From an uncultured delta proteobacterium (GTDB taxonomy: Bacteria > Myxococcota_A > Polyangia > Polyangiales > Polyangiaceae), in assembly GCA_963850305.1 (NCBI GenBank), contig CAWKKR010000011.1:320001-384000 (forward strand): DNA of 64,000 nucleotides. Reading direction: 5' to 3'. The notes below the pieces were generated by a model that saw nothing but the letters and a program-made list of their open reading frames with translations, had not been told where the DNA came from and did no database searches. Positions 40,136 through 58,779 of the stretch are shown here, one piece after another. Made by a program: the position numbers and the translations under genes. How positions within the stretch are numbered: the stretch's first letter is position 1; the number at the start of each line of letters is the position of its first letter.

Positions 40136-41167
40136 GTGCGACTCGCCTCGCTCCGCCTGGTCGGTGTTCCTCCGTTCCGGGATGTGACCATCCCCTTCGG
40201 AAACGAGGACGGAACGGCGCGCGCCCTCACCGTCCTCTACGGCGGCGGTGGCGTCGGCAAAACCACCGTCCTTCACGCCATCGCGTGCACGCGCCCTGGT
40301 TACGCCGTCGTGCTCGGCGGGCAAAGCGCTCCCGATGCGTTCGTGGCGGCGGAGTGGCTCCTCGGCGCGGACGACCCGGATCGACCTCACCCACTCGGCA
40401 TCGCGACACCCACCGCGAGATTTGCCGTCGACGAACACGAGGAGATGTTGCGCCGGCGCCAGCAGGCTCATTTCGATCGCGTCGCGAAGGACGGCGGCTT
40501 CGTGGCCGTGACGATCCCGAGCACCCGCTGGTTCTCGCGTCAGCCCCTCGCGCTCAGCGCTCCCGCGCGCACGCTCGCGAAATACGACGTACGCGCTCCG
40601 GCAGTCCTCGAAGACGCGTCGCGCACCGATCTCACGCGCGAGACCAAGCAATCCCTCGCCTACGCTGCCATCACCGCGGCCCTGGCGCACGATCGAGCCT
40701 CGTCCTTCGCACGCCTGGGCGCGGCGATGACGCGCGTGGTGGACGCACTCGTGACGCTCGCCGGGTTCTCGTACGCCGGGATCGATCCGGCATCCTTCGA
40801 ACCGACCTTTCGCGCGGACGACGGCGCGCTCCTCCCGTTCGACGCGTTGCCCACACGCGCTCGACACCTCGTAGCGTTCGGGGCGATTCCGCTCAGGAAC
40901 TTGTGGGCCGCGTATCCGGAGACCGAGCCGCTCGAGCTCGAGGGCGTGGTGTGCATCGACGAAGTCGAGCTTCAGCAAGACGCCGTCGTACAGGCCCACC
41001 TGCTCGCGACCCTCCGTGAAGTGCTGCCGCGCGTGCAATGGATCGTCACCACGACATCGCCCATCGTCGCGTCGAGCGCCGACGCTCACGAGGTCCACGC
41101 CCTCCGCCGCCTGCCCCGTGCCGACAGCGTCGAATTGTTCTCGGGCCCCGAAGCCCGCACCCACTGA
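40136..41167 (+). CDS. ABC/SMC-type AAA ATPase with degenerate motifs
   Basis: Walker A GGGGVGKT, Walker B CIDE, 'QWIVTTTSP' in place of the usual TTHSP. Confidence 0.75.
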   Translation: MRLASLRLVGVPPFRDVTIPFGNEDGTARALTVLYGGGGVGKTTVLHAIACTRPGYAVVLGGQSAPDAFVAAEWLLGADDPDRPHPLGIATPTARFAVDEHEEMLRRRQQAHFDRVAKDGGFVAVTIPSTRWFSRQPLALSAPARTLAKYDVRAPAVLEDASRTDLTRETKQSLAYAAITAALAHDRASSFARLGAAMTRVVDALVTLAGFSYAGIDPASFEPTFRADDGALLPFDALPTRARHLVAFGAIPLRNLWAAYPETEPLELEGVVCIDEVELQQDAVVQAHLLATLREVLPRVQWIVTTTSPIVASSADAHEVHALRRLPRADSVELFSGPEARTH

Positions 41168-41253: not shown

Positions 41254-41294
41254 GAAAAAGACCGGCCGGGAGATGCCCGAGGCATTCCCGGCCG
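41254..41294 (-). terminator. Rho-independent terminator for the porin transcript
   Basis: Hairpin CGGCCGGGA-G-ATGCC-CGA-GGCAT-TCCCGGCCG followed on the minus strand by TCTTTTTC. Confidence 0.7.
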
Positions 41295-41311: not shown

Positions 41312-41434
41312 GCCAAGGCCCCATTGCGAAGACCGTGGGGTCAGCTCGGCGGGTGAGGCGCGCAGGCGTACGAATGTACGCCGAGCACCGAGAGCGCCGA
41401 GATGGCCCCACGCTCGAAGCAAGGGGTCCTTGGC
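41312..41434 (+). repeat. Structured palindromic intergenic element, copy 1
   Basis: Nested stems around GGCGTAC-GAAT-GTACGCC; the 95-nt core (41326-41420) aligns without gaps to the copies at 56728 and 56857. Confidence 0.85.
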
Positions 41435-41438
41435 AACG

Positions 41439-42746
41439 TCAGAACATGTAGGCGGCGCCTAGCGCGATCGTGTCCTGCGTGCTCTTGCCGTTGAAGATGT
41501 TCTTGTCGTCGGCTCCGCCTGCCGCCGTTCCGCTCAACGCGGCGTCGATGCGGAACTCCGCGCGGAGCTGGATGTTCTTCGTCGGCGTGTAAGCAGGCGT
41601 GATCGTAAAGTTCAGCATGCTCGCCTTGTCGAAGCCGGGATCGCCATTCGCTGCGAGGCGCGACCCGTGCGCGTCACCGAAGTATTCGATACGAGCGCCG
41701 AGTGCGAACGCGCCCATCGTGTAGACCGGCTGGAGCCCGAAGCCGTACCAGGAGTCGTCCTGCGGGTTCCCGTTGGCATCGGGTGCGCCCACCTTCGGCT
41801 CCGACCCGAAGATACCCTGGAAGTTCAGCGTGAGCGCATCGAGAACCACGGCGCCGGTCAAGTCGACCGTCAGGCGTTTGTCCTTGTCGTCATTGGTCTC
41901 CTCCGCTCCGTAGCTGCCGGAGATCTGCGCGTGGAACATGCTATTGGGCGCGACGTCCGCATTGAACAGGAACGTCTTCTGATTGTTGTTGTCATAGAGA
42001 CGATCCCAGCCATTCACGAGGCCGACGCCGATGTGTGCCATGCCCCCGCCGAGGGCGTAATTGATCTTCGCGCCGGTGTGGGTGAGCGGCTCGGCAAGGT
42101 TGAACAGGAAGCCGCGCGTGATGGTCGGGTTGAGTGGGCCGTCGATGACCTCGATGCCGTTCAGCGTGACGAACTTGCCGGCCTGGAACGTGAAATCGCC
42201 CGGCGTCCACTTCACGTATGCTTCGCGAACGTCCGCCGGAACCCCGCTCACGGGACCCGACTGGTTTCCGGCGTAATTGTAGTTGTCGAGCTCAGCATCG
42301 CTACCGAAGTCGAGCGAAACGAACGCGCTGGCTTCGGAGCTGAACGAGTGGCTCACGGCGAGATGCGCCGCATGGAGGAGGAATCCGCCTGGCGCATCGT
42401 ATGAACGGAGCGCCGCTCCCGTGTCGTAGCTGTTCTTGCTGATGTTGAGGTGGTAGCCGGCGTCGACGTACCCGGCGATGGTCGCCGTCGGTGCGGGGGC
42501 TTCCGCTGGCGGCGGGGGCGCCGCGGCGGCCGGTGCCGGAGCTGCGGCCGCGGGAGCGGGTTCCGGCGCCGCAGCCGGCGCTGCCGGTGCGGGTTCCGGC
42601 GCGGCCGCGGGCGCTGCGGCAGGAGCGGGTTCCGGCGCTGCTGCTGGCGCGGCAGCAGGCGCCGTGGCCTGGGCGAACGCACTGATGGGATAAATGACGC
42701 CGGCGATCGCCAGCGAAAGCCCTAGTCTCATGCTCGTTGCTTTCAT
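41439..42746 (-). CDS. Outer-membrane beta-barrel porin (DUF1597/BBP2-like) with Pro/Ala-rich linker
   Basis: Signal peptide (AFA-Q), 'GYVDAGY', 'AGKFVT..G.EVI', 'NGWD', 'RAEFRID', terminal Phe. Confidence 0.8.
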   Translation of the reverse strand: MKATSMRLGLSLAIAGVIYPISAFAQATAPAAAPAAAPEPAPAAAPAAAPEPAPAAPAAAPEPAPAAAAPAPAAAAPPPPAEAPAPTATIAGYVDAGYHLNISKNSYDTGAALRSYDAPGGFLLHAAHLAVSHSFSSEASAFVSLDFGSDAELDNYNYAGNQSGPVSGVPADVREAYVKWTPGDFTFQAGKFVTLNGIEVIDGPLNPTITRGFLFNLAEPLTHTGAKINYALGGGMAHIGVGLVNGWDRLYDNNNQKTFLFNADVAPNSMFHAQISGSYGAEETNDDKDKRLTVDLTGAVVLDALTLNFQGIFGSEPKVGAPDANGNPQDDSWYGFGLQPVYTMGAFALGARIEYFGDAHGSRLAANGDPGFDKASMLNFTITPAYTPTKNIQLRAEFRIDAALSGTAAGGADDKNIFNGKSTQDTIALGAAYMF

Positions 42747-43105: not shown

Positions 43106-44903
43106 TCACTTCGTCGTCACGGCCGCGCGATAGCGCCGCCATCCGCCGAAGTGGGTGATGTCCATCGCATCCCGCAGCGCGTGCGGTTCACATACGAAGC
43201 CACTCACGCGCATTCCGTCCTCCAGCAAGACGGTTCCGATCGCCAGCGGCGCCGGTACTTCGTCGACGAAGCTTCCGAACGCGGCTTCGTCGAGCGACCA
43301 CACCTCGACTTCGATCCCCGCTCCGACGAAGTCCGGATCGTAGACCAGGCCTGGCTTCGGCGGCTCCGTGCGCAGCGCGTAAAATCGGTAGTGCTCCGAG
43401 GTACGACACGAGCGAACGAGGTGCCCACGGCGGCTCGTGAGCTGGTGATTGAGCGGCTCCCCCGCGAGGTGCGCGCCCGCGACCGCGATGAGGAGATCAC
43501 CGTCGCGACCGGACGGCACTTCCGCACCGAGAACGGGCTCGTCCGTGATGCCGACATTTCCGCCGTAGCTCGCGTGAAGGCGTGACGCCAGGAGCGCGAG
43601 GTCCCGATCCGCGAACGCAGGGGCGACGAGCGTAACGCCGGATGGAAGACCGTCGGGACGAAGTCCCGCGGGGATCGCGATGGCGGACAGATCCATCAGG
43701 TTGACGAAGTTCGTGTAATGGCCGAGTCGCGTGTTGCACTCGACGGGAGCGTGCTCCACGTCGACGACCGTGTACGTCGTCGGCACGGTCGGGACGAGCA
43801 GGACATCCATCTTCTTCCACTCGGCTTCCGCGCGACGAAGAGCGTCGGCGAGCCGGTACATGCCTTCGAACACGTCCCTCGCAGAGAAACCGCGCGCGCC
43901 CTCGAGAATCGTGCGAACGATCGGCTGGATCGCGCCGGGCTCCTTCTCGAGCAGCGCACCCGCCGCGAAGAGCCGCTCGGCGACCCACGGTCCGCCGTAG
44001 AGCAAGCCGGCTGCGTCACGAAACGGCGCGAAGTCGATCTCGACGGACACGGCGCCGAGTGCCTCGACCTGACGCACGGCTCGTTCGTAGAGCTGCGCCG
44101 CGGCGGCATCGCCGAAGAACTCGAGATCCGAATGCCGCGGGACGCCGACGCGCAGCGGTTCGGAAAAGCGAATCTCTCGCGCGCGATTCTCGTCCCGCGA
44201 GTAACGATCTTCGACGTCGAAAGCCGACACGACGTCGAGGACGGTTCGAGCGTCCGCGACGCTGCCGGCGAAGATCGACACGACGTCCAGCGACCGGCAC
44301 GCGGGCACGACGCCGCGCGTGCTGACGAGGCCGCGCGTCGGTTTGAGACCGACGACGTTGTTGAGAGCCGCGGGAACCCGACCGGAGCCTGCCGTGTCCG
44401 TGCCGAGCGCGAATGACGTGAGACCGTGCGCAACGGCGAGCGCGGAACCCGAGCTCGAACCGCCGGAGATGTACCGCGGATCGAATGCGCTCCGGCAAAT
44501 GCCGTACGGCGAGCGTACGCCCACCAGCCCGGTGGCAAACTGGTCGAGGTTCGTTTTGCCGAGCACGATCGCGCCCGCCGCGACCAGCCGCTCGACGGAC
44601 GCCGCGGAGCGTGCTGGCACGTACTCGAACGCCGGGCACCCCGCGGTCGTCGGGAGACCGGCGACGTCGATGTTGTCCTTCACGGCGAAGGGCACGCCGA
44701 AGAGCGGCAAGGACTCGCCCTTCGCTCTTCGTGCTCCCGCCGTGGCGAGCTGCTCCAGGAGCGCGTCGAGCGACAGGCGATGAATCCGAGATCTCCCGCG
44801 GCGCGTGGTCGGCACGACGGTGCACCTCGGCCAGCACGTCTCGCGCGGTGCTCGGTTGCGCGGCGTACCGCGCGCGCAGCGTTGCCAGCTGAAGTCGAAC
44901 CAT
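43106..44903 (-). CDS. atzF: Allophanate hydrolase; +1 frameshift near 44788
   Basis: 'KDNID', 'GKTNLDQFATGLVG', 'GGSSSGS', 'GTDTAGSGR', C-domain 'GAHLAGEPLNHQL'; N-terminus MVRLQLATL in the adjacent frame. Confidence 0.9.
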
Positions 44904-44911
44904 CTCTGCGA

Positions 44912-45262
44912 TCAGAAGCGCACCGGCCGTTCCCAGATTACCAGTACCACGCAACCGGAGGGGCTCGTTACATCGTGATGAGAGCCGGGCGCGTTGATGA
45001 TCAACGTCCCCGGACCGTACGTGCCGCGTTCGTCGCGCTGTTCGCCCTCGAGCACGAAGATGTGCTCGTAGCCGGTGTGTTCGTGTCGAGGCAGACTGGC
45101 GCCCGGTGCGTAGCGGAGGACGGCAGCGGCGGCAGCGGCACCGGGGGTGCCGTAAATCGGCTTGAGCTCCACGCCAGGACGGAATGGCTGGAATTCTCCG
45201 TGCGAGCGAGCGAGGGCCGAAAGCACGAAGACCCGGGAGGAGGGTTCGTTCGGGCTCAGCAT
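44912..45262 (-). CDS. ChrR-like cupin domain protein
   Basis: 'PGASLPRHEHTGYEHIFVLEG...PGSHH'. Confidence 0.8.
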   Translation of the reverse strand: MLSPNEPSSRVFVLSALARSHGEFQPFRPGVELKPIYGTPGAAAAAAVLRYAPGASLPRHEHTGYEHIFVLEGEQRDERGTYGPGTLIINAPGSHHDVTSPSGCVVLVIWERPVRF

Positions 45263-45287
45263 CGACGAAGGCTGAAGACGGTCAAAC

Positions 45288-46829
45288 TCACTCGTGGCCT
45301 GCCATGTGCTGCCCGATCACGGTGAGATCCGCGCTCGCGGCCTCGGTTTCATAGACGATCCGGCCCTCGCTCATCACGAGAATTCGATCGGCGAGGGCGA
45401 AGATCTCGTCGAGATCGGCGCTGACGAGCAGCACGGCCGCTCCGGAGTTGCGCGCCTGAAGGATGCGCGAGCGAATCTCCGCGACGGCCGCGAAGTCCAG
45501 CCCGAAGCAAGGGTTCGCGGCGATGAGGAGGGCTACCTCGCCATCGAGCTCGCGCGCGAGCACGGCGCGCTGAACGTTACCGCCGGAGAGCGTCGAGATC
45601 GGCACGTCCGGCGACGGGGTCCGGATGTTGAAGCTTGCGATCGCACCGAGCGCGGCACTCCGTAGCGCCTTGCGATCGAGACCCCAGCGCGCCACGGTGA
45701 ACGGCGCGGTGTCATACACGCGAAGCCCGATATTCTCGGACACCGCCATCTGCGGCACGCAAGCGTTCCGGAGCGGCGCTTCCGGCAAGAGCCGCACCTT
45801 GGAGGTACGAATCTCCCGGCGGGTTGCCGTGTAGTCCTTGCCCGCCACCCGAAGGTGGCCGGAGATCGACGGACGCTGTCCCGCCAGCACCTCGATGAGC
45901 TCGTCCTGGCCGTTCCCCGAGACGCCGGCGATGCCGACGATTTCACCGCGGCGGACGCTCAATTCGATGCCGTTCAGCACGGGTACGCCGATGTCGTCGA
46001 GCGCGTGCAGATCTCCGACGGTCAGCACCGCTTCTCCCGGCGGGGCCGACGACCGCTCCGCGGACGCCTTGGGCGGCTCGGAACCGACCATCATCTCCGC
46101 CATCTGGGCGGGCGTCAGATCCGCGACGCGACCGCGGCCGACGACGGCGCCGCGCCGGAGCACCGTGACTTCGTCCGCGAAGCCGATCACTTCACGGAAC
46201 TTGTGCGTGATCATGAGCACACTGATCCGCTTCTCCGACGCCATCCGGCGGAGTAACCCGAGAACCTCGTCTGCTTCGGAAGGCGTCAGCACGCTGGTCG
46301 GCTCGTCGAGGATGACGATGCGGCTCTCGAGGTAGAGCTGCTTCAAGATCTCGAGTTTTTGCTTTTCGCCCGCCGCGAGCTGGCGCACGAGCCGGCGCGG
46401 GTCGATCTTGAATGGCATCGTCGACATGAAGGTGTCGATGTGCCGGTGTTCGCTCGCCCAATCGATGATTCTCGGGAGCTCCGCTCGCGAGAGAACGAGG
46501 TTCTCCGCGACGGACATGTTCTCGACGAGCGTGAAGTGCTGGTACACCATCCCGATCGCATGCCGCTGCGCGTCCTTCGGGCTGTTCAGCTCGATGGTCT
46601 TGCCCCCCACGCGGATGCTCCCTCCATCCGCGTGGTAGAAGCCCATGATGCATTTGACCAGCGTGCTCTTGCCCGCTCCGTTTTCGCCGAGCAGGGCGTG
46701 AACACTGCCCGGTTCCAGTCGCAGGTTCGCGCGATCGAGAACGGTGATTCCACCGAACTGCTTGGTCACGTCCTCCGCTTCGAGGAGCGGCGGCGGAGTC
46801 GGGACGGCGACCGCGAGCGCAGCGCTCAT
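45288..46829 (-). CDS. ABC transporter ATP-binding protein (two NBDs, CUT2/nucleoside type)
   Basis: 'GENGAGKST', 'LDEPT', 'LSGGNVQR'; ATG at 46829 overlaps the biuH stop. Confidence 0.92.
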   Translation of the reverse strand: MSAALAVAVPTPPPLLEAEDVTKQFGGITVLDRANLRLEPGSVHALLGENGAGKSTLVKCIMGFYHADGGSIRVGGKTIELNSPKDAQRHAIGMVYQHFTLVENMSVAENLVLSRAELPRIIDWASEHRHIDTFMSTMPFKIDPRRLVRQLAAGEKQKLEILKQLYLESRIVILDEPTSVLTPSEADEVLGLLRRMASEKRISVLMITHKFREVIGFADEVTVLRRGAVVGRGRVADLTPAQMAEMMVGSEPPKASAERSSAPPGEAVLTVGDLHALDDIGVPVLNGIELSVRRGEIVGIAGVSGNGQDELIEVLAGQRPSISGHLRVAGKDYTATRREIRTSKVRLLPEAPLRNACVPQMAVSENIGLRVYDTAPFTVARWGLDRKALRSAALGAIASFNIRTPSPDVPISTLSGGNVQRAVLARELDGEVALLIAANPCFGLDFAAVAEIRSRILQARNSGAAVLLVSADLDEIFALADRILVMSEGRIVYETEAASADLTVIGQHMAGHE

Positions 46830-47524
46830 CGCACGGCCTCGAGCAGCGCGGTCGATGTGGAGACGGCTCCGAAGACGCCGTTTTGCATCGTGACCATCTT
46901 CAGCGCCGCCGCGTGGTTGCCCGTATCCGTCGCCGCGCAGCAATCGGACAGGATCACGCACTCGTAGCCGCGATCGTTCGCGTCGCGCATCGTCGTGTGG
47001 ACGCAGACGTCGGTCGTGATGCCCGTGAGCACGACGTTCCGGACGCCGCGCAGGCGCAAGATCATGTCGAGATCCGTCGCATAGAACGATCCCTTGCCGG
47101 GCTTGTCGATGATGGGTTCTCCATCCCTCGGATAGAGCTCCGGAATGATGTCCCACCCCGGCTCACCGCGGACGAGCACGCGCCCGCACGGACCCGGGTC
47201 CCCGATGCCGGTCTGCGGCGGTCCTTCCGCACCGTCTCGACGGCGCGAACGCCACCTCTTGTTCGCCGGAAGATCCGCGAGGTCGGGCCTGTGCCCTTCA
47301 CGGGTATGAATGACGTGGAACTTCTTCTCGCGCATCGCCGCGAGGAGCCGCGAAATGGGCTCTATGCAAGCGCGGGTGATGGAGATGTCGTAGCCGAGCA
47401 GATCGATGTAGCCGCCCTTGCCGCAAAAATCGGTCTGCATGTCGATGACGACGAGCGCCGTGTTCTGAGGGCGAAGGTCGCCGTCGAAGGGCCAGGGGTA
47501 AGGGTTTGCAGCGACGAACGTCAC
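46826..47524 (-). CDS. biuH: Biuret hydrolase (cysteine hydrolase/isochorismatase family)
   Basis: 'PYPWP', 'IDMQTDFCGKGGY', 'REGHRPDLADLPANKRWRS', 'DKPGKGSF', 'ITTDVC', 'MQNGVFG' closely match Rhizobium BiuH as recalled; Asp-Lys-Cys triad intact; next to atzF. Confidence 0.88.
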   Translation of the reverse strand: MTFVAANPYPWPFDGDLRPQNTALVVIDMQTDFCGKGGYIDLLGYDISITRACIEPISRLLAAMREKKFHVIHTREGHRPDLADLPANKRWRSRRRDGAEGPPQTGIGDPGPCGRVLVRGEPGWDIIPELYPRDGEPIIDKPGKGSFYATDLDMILRLRGVRNVVLTGITTDVCVHTTMRDANDRGYECVILSDCCAATDTGNHAAALKMVTMQNGVFGAVSTSTALLEAVR

Positions 47525-47540
47525 GACATCTGTCCTTTCG

Positions 47541-48467
47541 TCACCGACCCACCGCGAGCTCGGCCGGCATGTCCGCGGACGTTTGCGTCGCGGAGCTGCT
47601 CATCAACATGATCACGAGCGTCAACACGTACGGGGCCGCGTTGAACAGGTAATATCCGGACGTGATCCCGACGGACTGGAGCGCGGGTCCGAGGGCGCTC
47701 GCGCCGCCGAACAGGAGGGAGGCGTACAGGCAGCGTATCGGATCCCACCGAGCGAAGATGACCAGTGCGACGGCCATGAGCCCCTGGCCGCTCGAGAGCC
47801 GTTCGTTCCAGCTCCCGGGATAGAAGAGGGACAGAAACGAGCCGCCGACGCCGGCGAAGAATCCGCCGGCCATGGTGGCGTACAGACGCACGCGATTCAC
47901 GTCGTATCCCATCGCGCGAGCCGCTTCCGCGCTCTCACCGACGATGCGAAGGATCAAACCCCACCGCGTCTTCTTGAAGAACCAGAGCATCGCGGGAGCG
48001 AGCACGAGCCCGACGATGAAGAGACCATTCACATCGAGCGCCGAACGCACTTGCTCGTCTTTCGCCCAGAACCCGAACGGAACGGCACCGAGGTGCGGCG
48101 CAACCGGCTGGATGAACGGCTTCCCGAGGTAAAACGCGAGACCGACCCCGAGTAGCATCATGGCGATGCCGAGGGCGATGTCGTTCACGCGCGGCTTCGA
48201 CGCCAGGTAGCCGTGGAGCGCGCCGAACGGCACGCCGAGGAGCCCTGCCGCGAGCACGCCCAGCCAGGGCGATCCGGTCTCGTACGCGACGCCGTACGCT
48301 CCCATGGCTCCCATGACGAGCGTGCCTTCGAGCCCGAGGTTGATACGCCCGCTCTTTTCGGTGAGGCATTCGCCGAGACTCACGAAGAGGAACGGCGTGC
48401 TGATGCGGATCGCGCCGCCCAGAATCCCGAGCGGGACGCCCCACCAGCCCAGTGAGGTCGCGTCCAT
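47541..48467 (-). CDS. ABC transporter permease
   Basis: Multi-TM; 'EKSGRINLGLEG', 'GQGLMAVALV', 'APYVLT'. Confidence 0.9.
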   Translation of the reverse strand: MDATSLGWWGVPLGILGGAIRISTPFLFVSLGECLTEKSGRINLGLEGTLVMGAMGAYGVAYETGSPWLGVLAAGLLGVPFGALHGYLASKPRVNDIALGIAMMLLGVGLAFYLGKPFIQPVAPHLGAVPFGFWAKDEQVRSALDVNGLFIVGLVLAPAMLWFFKKTRWGLILRIVGESAEAARAMGYDVNRVRLYATMAGGFFAGVGGSFLSLFYPGSWNERLSSGQGLMAVALVIFARWDPIRCLYASLLFGGASALGPALQSVGITSGYYLFNAAPYVLTLVIMLMSSSATQTSADMPAELAVGR

Positions 48468-49549
48468 CACACCACCGCGAGCTTCTTGGCGGGCTCCGTT
48501 TCGACGGCGGCCCGCGGCTTGAAGACGGCCAGCTTGCCGTAAAGCGACTCGCTCGCGAGGATCATCACGAACAGGATTCCCTGGAGCACGCCCACCGTCG
48601 CGTCGGGCAGATCGAACACGCGCTGGAGCAAACCGCCGCTCGCGTTGATGCCTCCGAGCAAGAGCGATACCGGAATGATGGCGAGCGGGTTCTGCCGCGC
48701 CAGGAATGCAACGAGGATCCCCGCATAACCGTAGCCCGCGACGAGCGAGGCGTTCGCGCAGCCATGAACGGCCGCCACCTCCACCATTCCCGCGACCCCC
48801 GCGGCTCCGCCCCCGAGGAAACACGCGATCAAGATGAGCCGGCCGACGTGGAGCCCGGCGAGACGCGCCGCGCGTAGATTACCGCCGACGATCGACGCCG
48901 AGAACCCGAATACCGTGCGCATCATGAGCACGTACGCGACGACACACGCGATGAGCCCGAACCCCAGGCCCCAATGCACTTCCATCCCCGGCATCGAGCC
49001 GAGTGCGTAGGCGTCCGCGATGTGACGCGTCGAGGGCTTGTTCAAGCTCGACGGGTCGCGCAACGGACCTTCCACGAAGTGATTCAACAGTGCGATCGCG
49101 ATGTACGTGAGGAGCAGACTGCTGATGGTCTCGTTGACACCGCGGTAAACCCGCATCGCGCCCGCGAGACCGATCCACACGCCGCCCGCGACGAAACCCG
49201 CGAGCATCATCAACGCCAGAGCCGTCACGGGAGAGACACCGTTGACCGCGACGCCGACCCACGCGGCGGCGAGCCCGCCCAGGACGAGCGCCCCTTCGCC
49301 GCCGATGATGACGAGGCCGAGCCGGGCCGGAAGTGCCGTGCAGAGCGCCGCGAGCATCAGCGGGGCGGCGCGCAGGAGCGTGTTCTGGATCGAGAACCAC
49401 GTCCCGAACGCGCCGCGGTACATCTCGTAATAGACCGAGAACGGATCTTTCCCGGCGATACCGACGAACGCGCCGAACAGCAGGAGCGTCGCGACGAGAG
49501 CGCCGAGCGGGATCGCAATCGGCTCGATCTTCGCCCGTCCGAAACGCAT
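48467..49549 (-). CDS. ABC transporter permease
   Basis: Multi-TM; 'IGGEG', 'VNETISSLLL', 'GYGYAGILVA'. Confidence 0.9.
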   Translation of the reverse strand: MRFGRAKIEPIAIPLGALVATLLLFGAFVGIAGKDPFSVYYEMYRGAFGTWFSIQNTLLRAAPLMLAALCTALPARLGLVIIGGEGALVLGGLAAAWVGVAVNGVSPVTALALMMLAGFVAGGVWIGLAGAMRVYRGVNETISSLLLTYIAIALLNHFVEGPLRDPSSLNKPSTRHIADAYALGSMPGMEVHWGLGFGLIACVVAYVLMMRTVFGFSASIVGGNLRAARLAGLHVGRLILIACFLGGGAAGVAGMVEVAAVHGCANASLVAGYGYAGILVAFLARQNPLAIIPVSLLLGGINASGGLLQRVFDLPDATVGVLQGILFVMILASESLYGKLAVFKPRAAVETEPAKKLAVV

Positions 49550-50739
49550 CAGTTGACCTTTCCGTTCACTCCTTCGACGAGGTAATTCATGCTCTCGAGC
49601 GTGATGTCGCGCTGCGCGAGCTGGGTCCCCGCCGGGACGACCATCTTGCCCGTGTTGTCCTTGATCGGCCCGGTATAGATCACGAGCGATCCGTCGGTGA
49701 GCTTGGCTTTCGCCTCTTCGGCCTTCTTCTTCGCTTCATCGGATACCGCTGCGCCGAAGGGCGACATCTTGATGAAGTTCTCCTTGAAGCCGCCGCGCAC
49801 GAGATGCTCCCACTTCTTCCCCTTCGCGATTTCGCCCTTCTTGATCTCGTCGATGTACTGCGTGTAGACGGTCGCCCAGTTCCACTCGGCCCCGGTCAGA
49901 TAACCCTTGGGCGCGAGCGCCGCCTGGTTCACGTGATAGCCGGTGCTGAAGATTCCGCGCTTTTCGGCCGTCTCGATCACGACCTTCGGCGAGTCGACGT
50001 GGGCCGTGAGCACGTCCACCCCTTGATCGATGAGGCTGTTCGCGGCTTCGGCTTCCTTGACGGGCATCGACCAGTCGCCGGTGAAGATGACGGTCGTCGT
50101 GACCGCCGGATTCACGGAGCGCGCCCCGAGCTCATAAGAATTGATGTTGCGGAGAACCTGCGGAATCGGCTTGGCGGCGATGAACCCGAGCTTCTTCGTC
50201 TTCGTGGTGAGGCCAGCGGTGATGCCGGCGACGTACTCCGCCTCGTCGATGTAACCGAAGTAACTGCCGACGTTCTCCGGGTCCTTGCCTTCCTTGTAAA
50301 GGCCGCCGCAGTGCAGGAAGATGACGTCCGGATATTTCACGGCCATCTTGAGAATGTGCGGGTCGAAGTACCCGAAGGACGTCGGGAAGAGCACCTTCGC
50401 ACCGTCGAGGTTGATCATGCTCTCCATCGTCTTCTGGACGGCGATGGTCTCCGGCACGTTCTCCTCTTCCCTGATCTTCACGCCCGGCAGCGCCGCAACG
50501 GCCTTCGCGCCCTCCGCGTGAGATTGGTTGTAGCCGTAGTCGTCCTTCGGCCCGACATAGATGAACCCGACGGTGAGCGCGGTCGGCGCCGGGGCCGCCG
50601 CGACGGCGGTGCTGCCGGAGGCCTCGGGCGGCGGGGAGGATGCCGTCGCCTTGTCGCAACCGGTGGCGGCAATCAGAAGGAGCACGGGCAGGAGTGAGAG
50701 GGTCGATTGGCGGGTGTCGGCAAGGTCTCGGGTTCGCAT
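49549..50739 (-). CDS. BMP-family ABC substrate-binding lipoprotein
   Basis: Lipobox ATGC, 'GFIYVGPKDDYGYNQSH', 'TSFGY', 'MNYLVEGV'; start uncertain. Confidence 0.88.
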   Translation of the reverse strand: MRTRDLADTRQSTLSLLPVLLLIAATGCDKATASSPPPEASGSTAVAAAPAPTALTVGFIYVGPKDDYGYNQSHAEGAKAVAALPGVKIREEENVPETIAVQKTMESMINLDGAKVLFPTSFGYFDPHILKMAVKYPDVIFLHCGGLYKEGKDPENVGSYFGYIDEAEYVAGITAGLTTKTKKLGFIAAKPIPQVLRNINSYELGARSVNPAVTTTVIFTGDWSMPVKEAEAANSLIDQGVDVLTAHVDSPKVVIETAEKRGIFSTGYHVNQAALAPKGYLTGAEWNWATVYTQYIDEIKKGEIAKGKKWEHLVRGGFKENFIKMSPFGAAVSDEAKKKAEEAKAKLTDGSLVIYTGPIKDNTGKMVVPAGTQLAQRDITLESMNYLVEGVNGKVN

Positions 50740-50975
50740 GGGCGTGTGATACGGGTGCACGCGTTTCCGAAACCTTTCGACGATGAGTCGACACGAAAGA
50801 AGTCGGGGCGTCCTTCGCGCATCGTGGGCAGCCGATTCTGCGAGCGGGCGCAATGATTTTTCGTTTCGAATCGTGTCGGACATCCTCCGTTAACAAGGTG
50901 CGTCCGATGGTCGCGCTCACAAGCCGCGTGCCCCACGCGGCCCCTCGCGCGCCTGCTTTTCAAACGGGAGTGGTC

Positions 50976-56509: not shown

Positions 56510-56666
56510 GCCCCTTGCTCCGGTGTGCCGGCCGCCTGCGCTTCGTTGCGCTCATCCTCGACGAGCAGGTCGCCCGCAAGATCCTCGACAGCCTCGGCTT
56601 GCCGTCGCGGGCACCCCCGGTGACTGACCTGTCGCGGTATCTGCTCGTAGGCGCTTGGAACTTTCT
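56510..56666 (+). mobile_element. Remnant of an IS91/ISCR-family transposase C-terminus with a possible degenerate oriIS
   Basis: 'RCAGRLRFVALILDEQVARKILDSLGLPSRAPP' resembles the IS91-type C-terminal CGGxMxxIAxIxDxxVxxKILxHLGL motif; GCGCTTGGAACTTTCT at 56651 resembles ISCR oriIS. Confidence 0.55.
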
Positions 56667-56678
56667 CCGCGCGATGAA

Positions 56679-56967
56679 GCCCGTGCTCGAAGCGACCCTC
56701 ACGCCGTCCACGGAACGTCGTTCAATCGCGAAGACCGCGGGTCTGGCTCGGCGGGTGAGGCCCGGAAGCGTACGCTAGTACGCTGAGGACCGAGAGCGCC
56801 GAGACAGGCCCGTGCTCGAAGCGACCCTCACGCCGTCCACGGAACGTCGTTCGATCGCGAAGACCGCGGGTCTGGCTCGGCGGGTGAGGCCCGGAAGCGT
56901 ACGCTAGTACGCTGAGGACCGAGAGCGCCGAGACAGGCCCGTGCTCGAAGCGAGCGAACGACGTTCC
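56679..56967 (+). repeat. 129-bp direct duplication carrying copies 2 and 3 of the structured palindromic element
   Basis: Units start 56679, 56808 and a partial at 56937; one mismatch between units; last copy closed by a 13-bp inverted repeat (56841-56853 / 56955-56967). Confidence 0.92.
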
Positions 56968-58779
56968 TCAGTCGTCGCGTCGCGGGCGCTTATTCCCGTC
57001 GAGAACGCGCTTGCGAACCCGCACGGAGTCCGGCGTCACTTCGACGAGCTCGTCGCGGTCGACGAACTCCAGGGCGGATTCGATCGTGAGCCGGTGCGGG
57101 GGCGACAGGATCACGTTCTCGTCGCGACCCGCGGCGCGGATGTTCGTGAGCTTCTTCTCGCGGGTCACGTTGACCTCGAGATCCTGGGGACGATTGTGCT
57201 GCCCGACGATCATGCCCTCGTAGACCTCGATGCCCGGGTCGATGAAGAGCACCCCCCGCGGCTGCACGTGAAAGAGCGCGTAAGGCGTCGCGATGCCCGT
57301 GCGGTCCGAGATGATCGCGCCGCTCGGACGGCGCAGCATGACGCCCCCCATGGGCTCCCACCCGTCGAACAGCGTGTTCAAGAGCCCTGTGCCGCGCGTT
57401 TCCGTCAAGAACGTCGAGCGGAAGCCGATGAGCCCGCGTGACGGGACACGGAACTCGAGGCGCGCGCGCCCCTGGGTGGGGGTGTGCATCTTGAGCATCT
57501 GTCCACGCCGCTCGCCGAGCCGCGTCGTCACCGCGCCCACGTAGGTGTCGGGGATGTCGACGATGACGAGCTCGAATGGCTCGTGGAGAACCCCGTTCTC
57601 CTCCTTCGTGACGACTTCGGGCATCCCGATCGCAAACTCGTAGCCTTCACGCCGCATCGTCTCGGCGAGGATCGCGAGCATGAGCTCTCCGCGACCGGAC
57701 ACCGTGAACGAATCCGGCTCCTCCGTCGGATCGACCCTGAGGGCGATGTTGCGCTTCGCCTCGCGCTCCAGCCGGTCCTTCACGTGTCGCGACGTCACCC
57801 ACTTGCCGGCGCGCCCCGCGAACGGCGAGTCGTTCACGCGGAACGTGATCTTGATCGTCGGTTGCTCCACGACGATGCGCGGCATCGCCGTCCGCACCTC
57901 GGGGTCCGAGAGGGTGTCGCCGATCTGGACGTCGTCGAAGCCGGCAACGGCGACGATGTCTCCCGCCTCCATCGCGTCCGTCTTGACCCGGCGAAGGCCT
58001 TCGAACGAGTACACCTGCACGACACGCCCGAGCTTCTCGCCCTTCTCGTGGAGGACGGCCACCTGCTTGCCGGTGACGATGCGCCCCTGGTGAATGCGCC
58101 CGATCGCGAGGCGTCCGACGTACTCGTCGTGGTGCACGTCGTGCACCAGCATGGCCAGCGGCGCCTCCGGATCGCCCGTCGGTGGCGGCACCTTCTCCAC
58201 TATCGTCTCGAACAGGGGCAGCAAGGAGCTTCGCTCATCCGTGAGCTGACGCATCGCCACACCGTCGCGACCGACCGCGTACACCGCCGGGAACTCCGCT
58301 TGCTTGTCGCTCGCCTCGAGGTCGCAGAAGAGCGCGAACACTTCGTCCAGCACGACGTCGGGACGGGAATCGGGGCGGTCGATCTTGTTGATGACGACGA
58401 TGATCGTCATGCCGAGCTCGAGCGCCTTGCCGAGCACGAATCGCGTCTGCGGCAGCGGACCCTCCGCCGCGTCCACGAGGAGCAGCGCGCCGTCCGCCAT
58501 CTTCAGCGTCCGCTCCACCTCGCCGCCGAAGTCCGCGTGCCCGGGCGTGTCGATGATGTTGAACTTGTAGCCGTTCCACGTCAGCGCCGCGTTCTTCGCG
58601 AGGATCGTGATACCGCGCTCGCGCTCGAGGTCGTTCGAGTCGAGCACGCGCTCGGCGACGGCTTCGTTCACGCGGAACACGCCGGCCTGCTTCAGCATGT
58701 TGTCGACGAGCGTCGTCTTGCCGTGATCGACGTGCGCGATGATCGCGATGTTGCGAATGTGATCTCTGCTCTGGTTCAC
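56968..58779 (-). CDS. typA: Translational GTPase TypA/BipA
   Basis: 'AHVDHGKTT', 'ERERGITILAKN', 'DTPGHADFGGEVER', 'GRGEL', 'KKLTNIRAAG'. Confidence 0.97.
   Translation of the reverse strand: MNQSRDHIRNIAIIAHVDHGKTTLVDNMLKQAGVFRVNEAVAERVLDSNDLERERGITILAKNAALTWNGYKFNIIDTPGHADFGGEVERTLKMADGALLLVDAAEGPLPQTRFVLGKALELGMTIIVVINKIDRPDSRPDVVLDEVFALFCDLEASDKQAEFPAVYAVGRDGVAMRQLTDERSSLLPLFETIVEKVPPPTGDPEAPLAMLVHDVHHDEYVGRLAIGRIHQGRIVTGKQVAVLHEKGEKLGRVVQVYSFEGLRRVKTDAMEAGDIVAVAGFDDVQIGDTLSDPEVRTAMPRIVVEQPTIKITFRVNDSPFAGRAGKWVTSRHVKDRLEREAKRNIALRVDPTEEPDSFTVSGRGELMLAILAETMRREGYEFAIGMPEVVTKEENGVLHEPFELVIVDIPDTYVGAVTTRLGERRGQMLKMHTPTQGRARLEFRVPSRGLIGFRSTFLTETRGTGLLNTLFDGWEPMGGVMLRRPSGAIISDRTGIATPYALFHVQPRGVLFIDPGIEVYEGMIVGQHNRPQDLEVNVTREKKLTNIRAAGRDENVILSPPHRLTIESALEFVDRDELVEVTPDSVRVRKRVLDGNKRPRRDD

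Follow-up and report, generated by a model that had tools for sequence, protein, structure and literature searches.

A REP-like GA-rich hairpin repeat behind stop codons in a Polyangiaceae genome, with an apical module that recurs in other phyla

The window analysed here is a 64,000-nt stretch of DNA from an uncultured member of the Polyangiaceae (contig CAWKKR010000011.1 of assembly GCA_963850305.1, positions 320,001 to 384,000), and all coordinates are positions within it. Gene content and the Sorangium relatives likewise suggest a myxobacterium, probably a member of the Polyangiaceae. At the first of two loci, a minus-strand gene for a BBP2-family beta-barrel porin (41439–42731, stop codon 41439–41441) is followed by a hairpin-forming repeat, copy 1, whose 95-nt core occupies 41326–41420 on the plus strand, the GA-rich folding strand. 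A locus-specific left outer arm (41312–41325, plus strand) pairs with the right outer arm (41421–41434, plus strand), which ends 4 nt from the porin stop codon. Within the core lie a 3x3 GAA/GAA loop, a tandem GA/AG, a 5x5 GGTGA/GAGAG loop and an apical module that we also find in other phyla (41360–41387, plus strand), composed of a 2-bp stem, a G(C/G)A opposite GA, a 7-bp terminal hairpin and a C.A mismatch. Copy 1 is placed between the porin stop codon and a separate terminator-like hairpin with a T run (41255–41294, minus strand). Converging on copy 1 is a plus-strand ATPase gene (40136–41167) whose product weakly matches, at its C-terminus, the model of the retron effector PtuA (E 5e-16, well under the model cut-off); no reverse transcriptase was found in the source genome, G000. 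Upstream of the porin, minus-strand allophanate hydrolase, ABC transporter and Bmp-family binding-protein genes (43106–50760) form what is likely a nitrogen-compound uptake cluster.

At the second locus, the repeat lies behind the minus-strand typA/bipA gene (56968–58779, stop codon 56968–56970). Copy 3 is a complete element (56841–56967, plus strand; left arm 56841–56856, core 56857–56951, right arm 56952–56967) and abuts the stop codon with 0 nt between them. Copy 2 (56712–56822, plus strand; core 56728–56822) has a left arm and a core, and its right arm is absent. It is a 129-nt tandem duplicate of copy 3 with an identical core, and a 5'-truncated remnant of a third tandem unit, the last 15 nt of the core, is found at 56679–56693 (plus strand). 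Since copies 2 and 3 are identical tandem duplicates, the window holds only two independent sequences. Located 48 nt before the array is a 40-codon plus-strand remnant (56512–56631) similar to the C-terminal end of IS91-like transposases encoded in the same genome (48% over 31 aa, E 0.002) and probably unrelated to the array.

The original prediction described a three-copy structured element with compensatory base pairs. Its gap-free alignment of the three cores was reproduced, all the compensatory stem swaps that it quoted are present in the sequences, and the GA-rich internal loops that it called invariant are identical in all three window copies. Both loci do end 0–4 nt from the stop of a minus-strand gene. 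The repeat is therefore real, but three was an undercount, as the genome yields 31 matches. Beyond the original prediction lie the cross-phylum range, the fixed polarity and the likeness to a described Geobacter family that are reported below. The outer stems, said to differ yet still pair, are locus-specific paired arms at copies 1 and 3, the only window copies with both arms, but not at copy 2.

The element folds into a single hairpin of about 125 nt without branches, made of the 95-nt core and an outer stem of 12–18 bp (80 of 82 copies) whose sequence differs per locus. The plus strand folds with z-scores of −9.65 (copy 1) and −8.99 (copy 3), and none of 200 shuffles was as stable; the minus strand is also stable (−9.42 and −7.40), with the plus strand slightly better. 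Structural selection had been proposed on the condition, set beforehand, that covariation would hold in a larger alignment. Across 24 sequences, 94.1% of cells are paired and 30 of 44 pairs have changed on both sides, far above the controls: none of 500 shuffles reached the observed level, and slid registers paired at 31–40%. These pair counts overstate the number of independent change events because the copies are related; when copies are compared with their nearest neighbours, pairing survives 134 double changes and is lost in 9. In 75 distinct cores, the pair cells of the GA-rich strand comprise 2086 Watson-Crick, 175 G.T, 14 A.C and 50 other combinations, the internal loops are 94% identical against 82% for the stems, and purines make up 25 of the 29 loop bases. 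The wobble bias, which the original prediction had used to place the fold on the strand antisense to the adjacent gene, together with the conserved purine loops identifies the GA-rich strand as the one under structural selection. We conclude that the hairpin is real and under structural selection, in agreement with the selected single-stranded structure with conserved GA-rich loops that had been proposed. A kink-turn reading of the GAA-GA segment was rejected by inspection, its register being incompatible with the covarying pairs. The comparison with Rfam proposed at the outset gave no match above the gathering threshold for the whole window; at seven loci the only hits were tRNA and a miRNA model, the latter matched at 29.6 bits against a threshold of 142.

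In the 6.26-Mb genome that holds the window, a search with an iterated profile yields 31 matches at E≤1e-4, located at 22 main loci, and 34 at 1e-2. By BLAST, the element is present in all six other genomes of the genus and marginal in 3 of 34 more distant ones. A covariance-model search of the genome and of Myxococcota had been suggested; our model R1 returned 7–33 matches in each of five genus genomes, and elsewhere in the phylum weak matches only, in at least 5 of 150 genomes with 23 candidates scored per genome. A local three-copy repeat is thus rejected for a family that is genome-wide and genus-wide, and the predicted REP/MITE-like behaviour is borne out by copies that are multiple, intergenic and mostly downstream of genes. 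At 8 of the 22 loci in the source genome the element forms tandem arrays, in which the intact copy sits next to the stop. Copies in this genome differ by 21 of 95 nt on average, and therefore most of them are old.

Comparison of orthologous sites shows how the copies are distributed among relatives. The typA site is empty in all six genus orthologues, and the porin site is empty in all four genus orthologues and at one distant metagenome locus, which indicates that copies spread by lineage. Sites filled in relatives are mostly empty in the source genome, and among the empty sites listed there the relatives' outer arms are absent, the species having diverged. For 50 of the 75 cores the nearest copy lies in the same genome, against 15.3 expected. 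Some sites are common to several species, namely tRNA-Trp in four genomes and rpsD-rpoA in three plus a mini copy in the source genome, and this suggests that they were kept for a function. At rpsD-rpoA, full copies occur in both orientations among relatives (L007 versus L037 and L059), and the mini copy (C8, about 684270–684345, minus strand) is internally deleted and has no apical half. Insertion of young copies into the loop of a pre-existing terminator was considered and rejected, as the same outer arms occur at more than 10 unrelated loci in a subfamily of one relative (G006).

The shape of the arrays bears on a reading in which the GA strand is RNA, either an antisense ncRNA or an RNA-intermediate mobile element inserting 3' end first. 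Structured RNA typically shows G.U-rich stems and purine-rich internal loops, as seen here, and 3'-first insertion would give intact stop-proximal ends, 5' truncations and concatemers. In the source genome the stop-proximal end is indeed intact, several copies are 5'-truncated and the arrays described above are present. However, left-half remnants also occur, as expected from array decay, neither the source genome nor a Rokubacteria genome with 126 module copies (G187) has a match to RVT_1, a crude scan found no sigma-70-like promoter near either window locus, and GNRA or UNCG apical loops are rare (7 of 85 genus copies, 1 of 83 distant copies). We consider this reading doubtful.

The element has a strong polarity relative to genes. 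We scored 91 loci (22 in the source genome and 69 in relatives) from the BLAST list, a subset of 119 model matches, with a home-made gene caller. At 71 of them the 3' end of the GA strand faces a stop codon on the opposite strand, mostly within 12–40 nt; the others face a tRNA 3' end (1), a same-strand gene start (10), a same-strand tRNA 5' end (5) or no called gene (4), and the rule is broken at 15 of the 91. Between co-directional genes, copies are antisense in 31 cases versus sense in 7, and at 36 of 38 convergent gene pairs the copy lies nearer the 3'-side gene, that is, the gene it points into. In the source genome 21 of 22 loci obey the rule, one of these at 660 nt. Lagging-strand targeting as in IS200/IS605 is rejected, with 13 leading versus 14 lagging copies among 27 source-genome loci including degenerate ones, so replication direction is not the cause of the polarity. 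The main exception to the rule consists of sense-oriented copies a few bases before a tRNA 5' end (L004, L026, L068, L076, L045 and L090), at tRNA-Trp in four genomes and at a tRNA upstream of tuf in two; for these tRNA-proximal copies, a role in precursor processing is possible.

The stem often reaches the stop codon itself: in 40 of 54 copies it either overlaps the stop or falls short of it by 5 nt at most, and the commonest end point is two bases into the codon. Among the 15 copies in which the six nucleotides preceding the stop are paired, pairing extends to the first stop base in 12 and to the first two in 9, and at locus L081 the left arm matches a tRNA 3' end. The gene sequence predates the element, so the left arm must either derive from it by copying or have been selected to match it, and fold-back template switching (PMC8794818) is the simplest source of such a gene-matching arm. 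A role for the element as a supplier of stop codons is unsupported; protein C-termini are the same in filled and empty orthologues.

This close placement raises the alternative that the role in mRNA is primary, the mirror hairpin after the stop acting as a 3' stabiliser, terminator or ribosome-stalling signal that fixes both position and orientation. In 23 of 82 copies the hairpin is followed, within 14 nt on the mRNA strand, by a run of TTT; the background rate is 6.2%, the other strand has such a run in 6 of 82, and TTTT follows on the mRNA strand in 11 of 82. The mRNA strand folds well, as noted for the minus strand of the window copies, and the neighbouring genes in the source genome, which from reading their sequences we take to be typA, rpoD, dnaK, ychF, secY and gnd, look housekeeping; the identity of typA was confirmed separately. 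In E. coli, REPs within 15 nt of a stop are reported to stall ribosomes (PMC12306157). In contrast, the 175 G.T pairs become A.C mismatches and the purine loops become pyrimidine loops in mRNA, and at distant loci the GA strand is the more stable one in 64 of 74 cases. Moreover, the TTT run is absent from 59 of 82 copies, copy 1 has its own terminator-like hairpin beyond it, and orthologous genes do without the element. A primary mRNA role is therefore unlikely in our judgement, though it is the likeliest of the rival readings.

Whether the element belongs to a known mobiliser was pursued in several carrier genomes, some of which are incomplete, which limits what these absences mean. HUH mobilisation, one of the original suggestions, found no support: the Y1 transposase domain PF01797 has no match in six genomes that carry the element or module (G000, G002, G004, G151, G186 and G187), no Y2 was found in G004, and the Y1 and Y2 genes that do exist are not flanked by the element. 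Specifically, it is absent from all 15 Y1 loci scanned, out of 17 in G001, G005 and G006, and from the three Y2 (IS91-like) loci of the source genome, whose ends are unrelated to it, and the module pattern is absent from 11 Y1 loci of G139. The RAYT, IS91 or IS200 transposase flanked by copies that the original prediction proposed to look for was likewise not found. Among the neighbours of distant copies, 111 scanned out of 145 candidates contained neither a transposase nor an integrase, and an all-against-all comparison revealed no recurring unknown protein family. A GIY-YIG partner was rejected, the matches being long proteins or unlinked. Plasmids and phages yielded weak partial matches only and no convincing copy; IMG/VR gave 9 matches, 3 of which score with the covariance model, and one contig with a second pattern. 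Flanking direct repeats of 2–8 nt are no commoner than in the control across 82 copies, although old copies may have lost them. The GTRG/CGTC foot tag occurs in 1, 4, 7 and 3 of 82 copies in the four strand and tag combinations, and RYYYAAC/GTTRRRY ends occur in 0 of 82 on either strand. There are no conserved terminal inverted repeats either: the outer arms pair but differ per locus, with only a genome-specific subfamily consensus.

These data also weigh on the idea of an ordinary MITE of a resident insertion sequence, either of the IS110 family, at stop codons, or IS91-like, given the remnant beside copies 2 and 3. The source genome's IS110 element (8 copies) has modules that join at AG|TAG and supply stop codons, and YAG is enriched on the right flank of our element (47 versus 27 of 85). 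Yet this excess overlaps the stop codons themselves, the left flank shows none (24 versus 24 of 85), there is no target duplication, and the outer arms change from locus to locus, which terminal inverted repeats do not. IS91-like and IS110 loci are without the element or module (no module at 20 IS110 loci), and IS110 was not found in the carrier G211, a genome that is 76% complete. We regard a MITE of this kind as improbable. As an observation in its own right, the eight IS110 copies of the source genome are near-identical (C5:149078, C5:297444, C7:1030822, C8:718134, C8:789152, C8:832046, C8:866348 and C11:72286) and insert at stop codons and at the start of a second GA-rich hairpin family; the first IS110 module resembles this target hairpin, and target copies stack inside the element. 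The second family has 55 motif matches in the source genome (for example C1:457069, C3:75707 and C8:985979), none of them in the window, and is also found at L353 in G006. Its first three bases are the TAG stop of the upstream gene in 13 of the 55 matches, it is often followed by another repeat unit (151 motif matches), and its polarity is opposite to that of the element studied here.

Distant model matches have only the apical module in common. An exact pattern for this module of about 30 nt matches in at least 121 GTDB stretches, and the 80 listed matches include Myxococcota with Sorangium, Desulfobacterota, Acidobacteriota, Rokubacteria, Nitrospirales, Spirochaetaceae, Gammaproteobacteria and Firmicutes; among the matches listed, most lie inside long hairpins. 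One match, at L207, is in a contig labelled Thorarchaeota, which is possibly a mis-binned bacterial contig. A looser pattern gives 126 matches in the Rokubacteria genome G187 and 8 in Sorangium So ce315 with 0 in the reversed control, and it occurs in 16 of 121 genomes of the window's family (reversed control, 1). In the distant phyla, an opposite-strand stop lies 30–75 nt downstream in 30 of 68 cases, compared with 7 at the mirror position. The 2-bp stem beside the apical loop, whose bases lie outside the search pattern, is fully paired in 62 of 83 cross-phylum copies (36 GC/GC, 26 CC/GG), and 18 further copies have AC/GG.

This stem is pertinent to a neutral alternative, a palindrome kept paired through template switching and gene conversion with no selected structure. 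Template switching can create or repair stems in one step (PMC8794818), and double changes outnumber single ones between nearest copies. On the other hand, it would erase loops and G.T pairs, yet the loops are the most conserved part and the wobbles are strand-biased, and the 2-bp stem covaries across phyla. The neutral reading is largely refuted, and we hold it to be very improbable indeed.

The loops also speak to whether the GA strand acts as DNA or RNA. In 23 Rokubacteria copies, 33 of the 34 loops on side hairpins are GNA triloops, in which each of the four bases occurs at the middle position, and the GNA triloop is described as a stable DNA motif (PMC3201870, PMC13037366). Because of these triloops and the rarity of GNRA and UNCG loops, we lean towards DNA, for the Rokubacteria subfamily more than for the window's: the triloop evidence comes from another subfamily, and its related copies are not independent. 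DNA rather than RNA is thus the more likely form in which the GA strand acts. Separately, Rokubacteria copies L276–L285 in G187 are mosaics in which interchangeable side hairpins surround an apical module that stays the same, as though the side hairpins had been shuffled between copies.

The element is REP-like in behaviour but does not qualify as a REP, a MITE or an attC site. Integron attC sites are imperfect palindromes of 57–141 nt located right after a stop codon and read as a folded bottom (template) strand, with structure conserved over sequence. Our element resembles them in that the folded strand is the template strand and lies directly after the stop codon; it differs in having no RYYYAAC/GTTRRRY ends, in neighbours that look housekeeping rather than like cassette arrays, and in having no integrase among the neighbours scanned. 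Its closest relative in named organisms is a hairpin repeat of Sorangium (L163, L174, L180, L197 and others; So ce315), which shares the apical module and the lower arms, has a stop codon 46–48 nt past the module, and carries pairs where our element has the 5x5 GGTGA/GAGAG loop; we found no description of it in the literature searched.

The element is also probably related, judging from a comparison by eye, to a Geobacter repeat. Gmet_R1001–R1024 of Geobacter metallireducens were reported as 'predicted short RNA elements' (Aklujkar et al. 2009, PMC2700814, Fig. S1), a set of 24 intergenic copies, each about 113 nt long and built around a central palindrome. Several of them, when taken on the reverse strand, show by eye the same apical stem with the preceding G(C/G)A, some with GA after it, and in the supplement text CAGATC/GAGATG arms like those of our element; the lower stems and loops differ. 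According to that paper the Geobacter elements lie mostly 5' of genes, and its passages on the family give no mechanism, polarity, or range beyond Geobacter and Desulfotalea. Like the GTAG and CGTC REPs and BIMEs (Di Nocera et al. 2013, PMC3733652; TnpA-REP, PMC6006769), our element consists of chromosomal, intergenic, multicopy imperfect palindromes downstream of genes, often at stops, rare between divergent genes and sometimes in arrays, and the CGTC REPs are likewise presented without a known transposase. REPs as described there measure 20–40 nt, whereas the element spans its ~125 nt in one hairpin. It further differs in having no GTRG/CGTC foot and no flanked RAYT, a strong gene-relative strand polarity and several conserved GA internal loops. 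Among the 250 mobile/repeat sequence candidates (MRSC) of Narunsky et al. 2024 (PMC11109978), MRSC-65-2 is similar in being a multicopy single long stem with covariation, in many phyla and possibly active as DNA, but it is defined by UYCCGG repeats and our core has no conserved UYCCGG. One other MRSC motif may belong to the same superfamily, since that study included a Geobacter genome. In the literature searched, which was mostly open-access and included PMC2996986 and bioRxiv 10.1101/2024.04.26.591405, no description of the polarity or the cross-phylum module was found, and nothing on the element beyond the Geobacter papers and the MRSC category.

With moderate confidence, we favour a REP-like mobile element that is non-autonomous: its GA strand would be recognised in folded, single-stranded form, it would be inserted or retained in one orientation behind stop codons, and template switching would remodel it. 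This explanation builds on the observed hairpin, covariation, strand asymmetry, polarity, lineage-specific sites and cross-phylum module, and adds to them a putative protein recognition and insertion step, and a presumed preference for DNA over RNA. A trans-acting protein would recognise the conserved GA loops, and chiefly the G(C/G)A/GA loop at the apex. New copies would then land downstream of the stop codon but before the end of the transcript, with transcription rather than replication setting their orientation, or else copies in the other orientation would be mostly purged. After insertion, fold-back template switching, which can generate or repair such stems in one step (PMC8794818), may rewrite the outer stem from local sequence; this proposed rewriting would be why the left arm often pairs with the gene's stop codon. 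Unequal recombination would make tandem arrays, of which the distal copies decay. A secondary effect may come from the mirror hairpin in the mRNA, which could protect transcripts or terminate them. Several observations count against this explanation: no mobiliser, target duplication or end tag was found, most copies in the source genome are old, some sites are common to several species, 15 of 91 loci break the polarity rule, and the U-rich tail on the mRNA strand in 23 of 82 copies favours an RNA role. Spread via one strand and retention via the other can nevertheless make the single-strand and mRNA readings compatible.

A broader version is possible, though we put it forward only tentatively: a widespread class of mobile hairpins, ranging from myxobacteria to Acidobacteriota, Desulfobacterota, Rokubacteria and Gammaproteobacteria, whose apical GA loop would be bound by an unrecognised single-strand recombinase or host protein, with transcription-coupled, oriented insertion at gene ends and an outer stem built from the target. 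Such a class would need no Y1, Y2, reverse transcriptase or IS110. Small bacterial repeats without a known transposase are a long-standing puzzle, and this family offers three handles: a ~30-nt module that covaries across phyla and could serve as bait, a strict strand rule linked to transcription, and carriers that can be cultured, namely Sorangium and probably Geobacter. Compensatory changes that arise partly by template switching would make it a clear case of relevance to RNA-motif discovery. If the mRNA copy is what matters instead, the family would be a portable 3'-end control element on housekeeping genes; if a new enzyme does insert it directionally behind stops without breaking genes, it would represent a new transposition chemistry and a natural safe-harbour rule.
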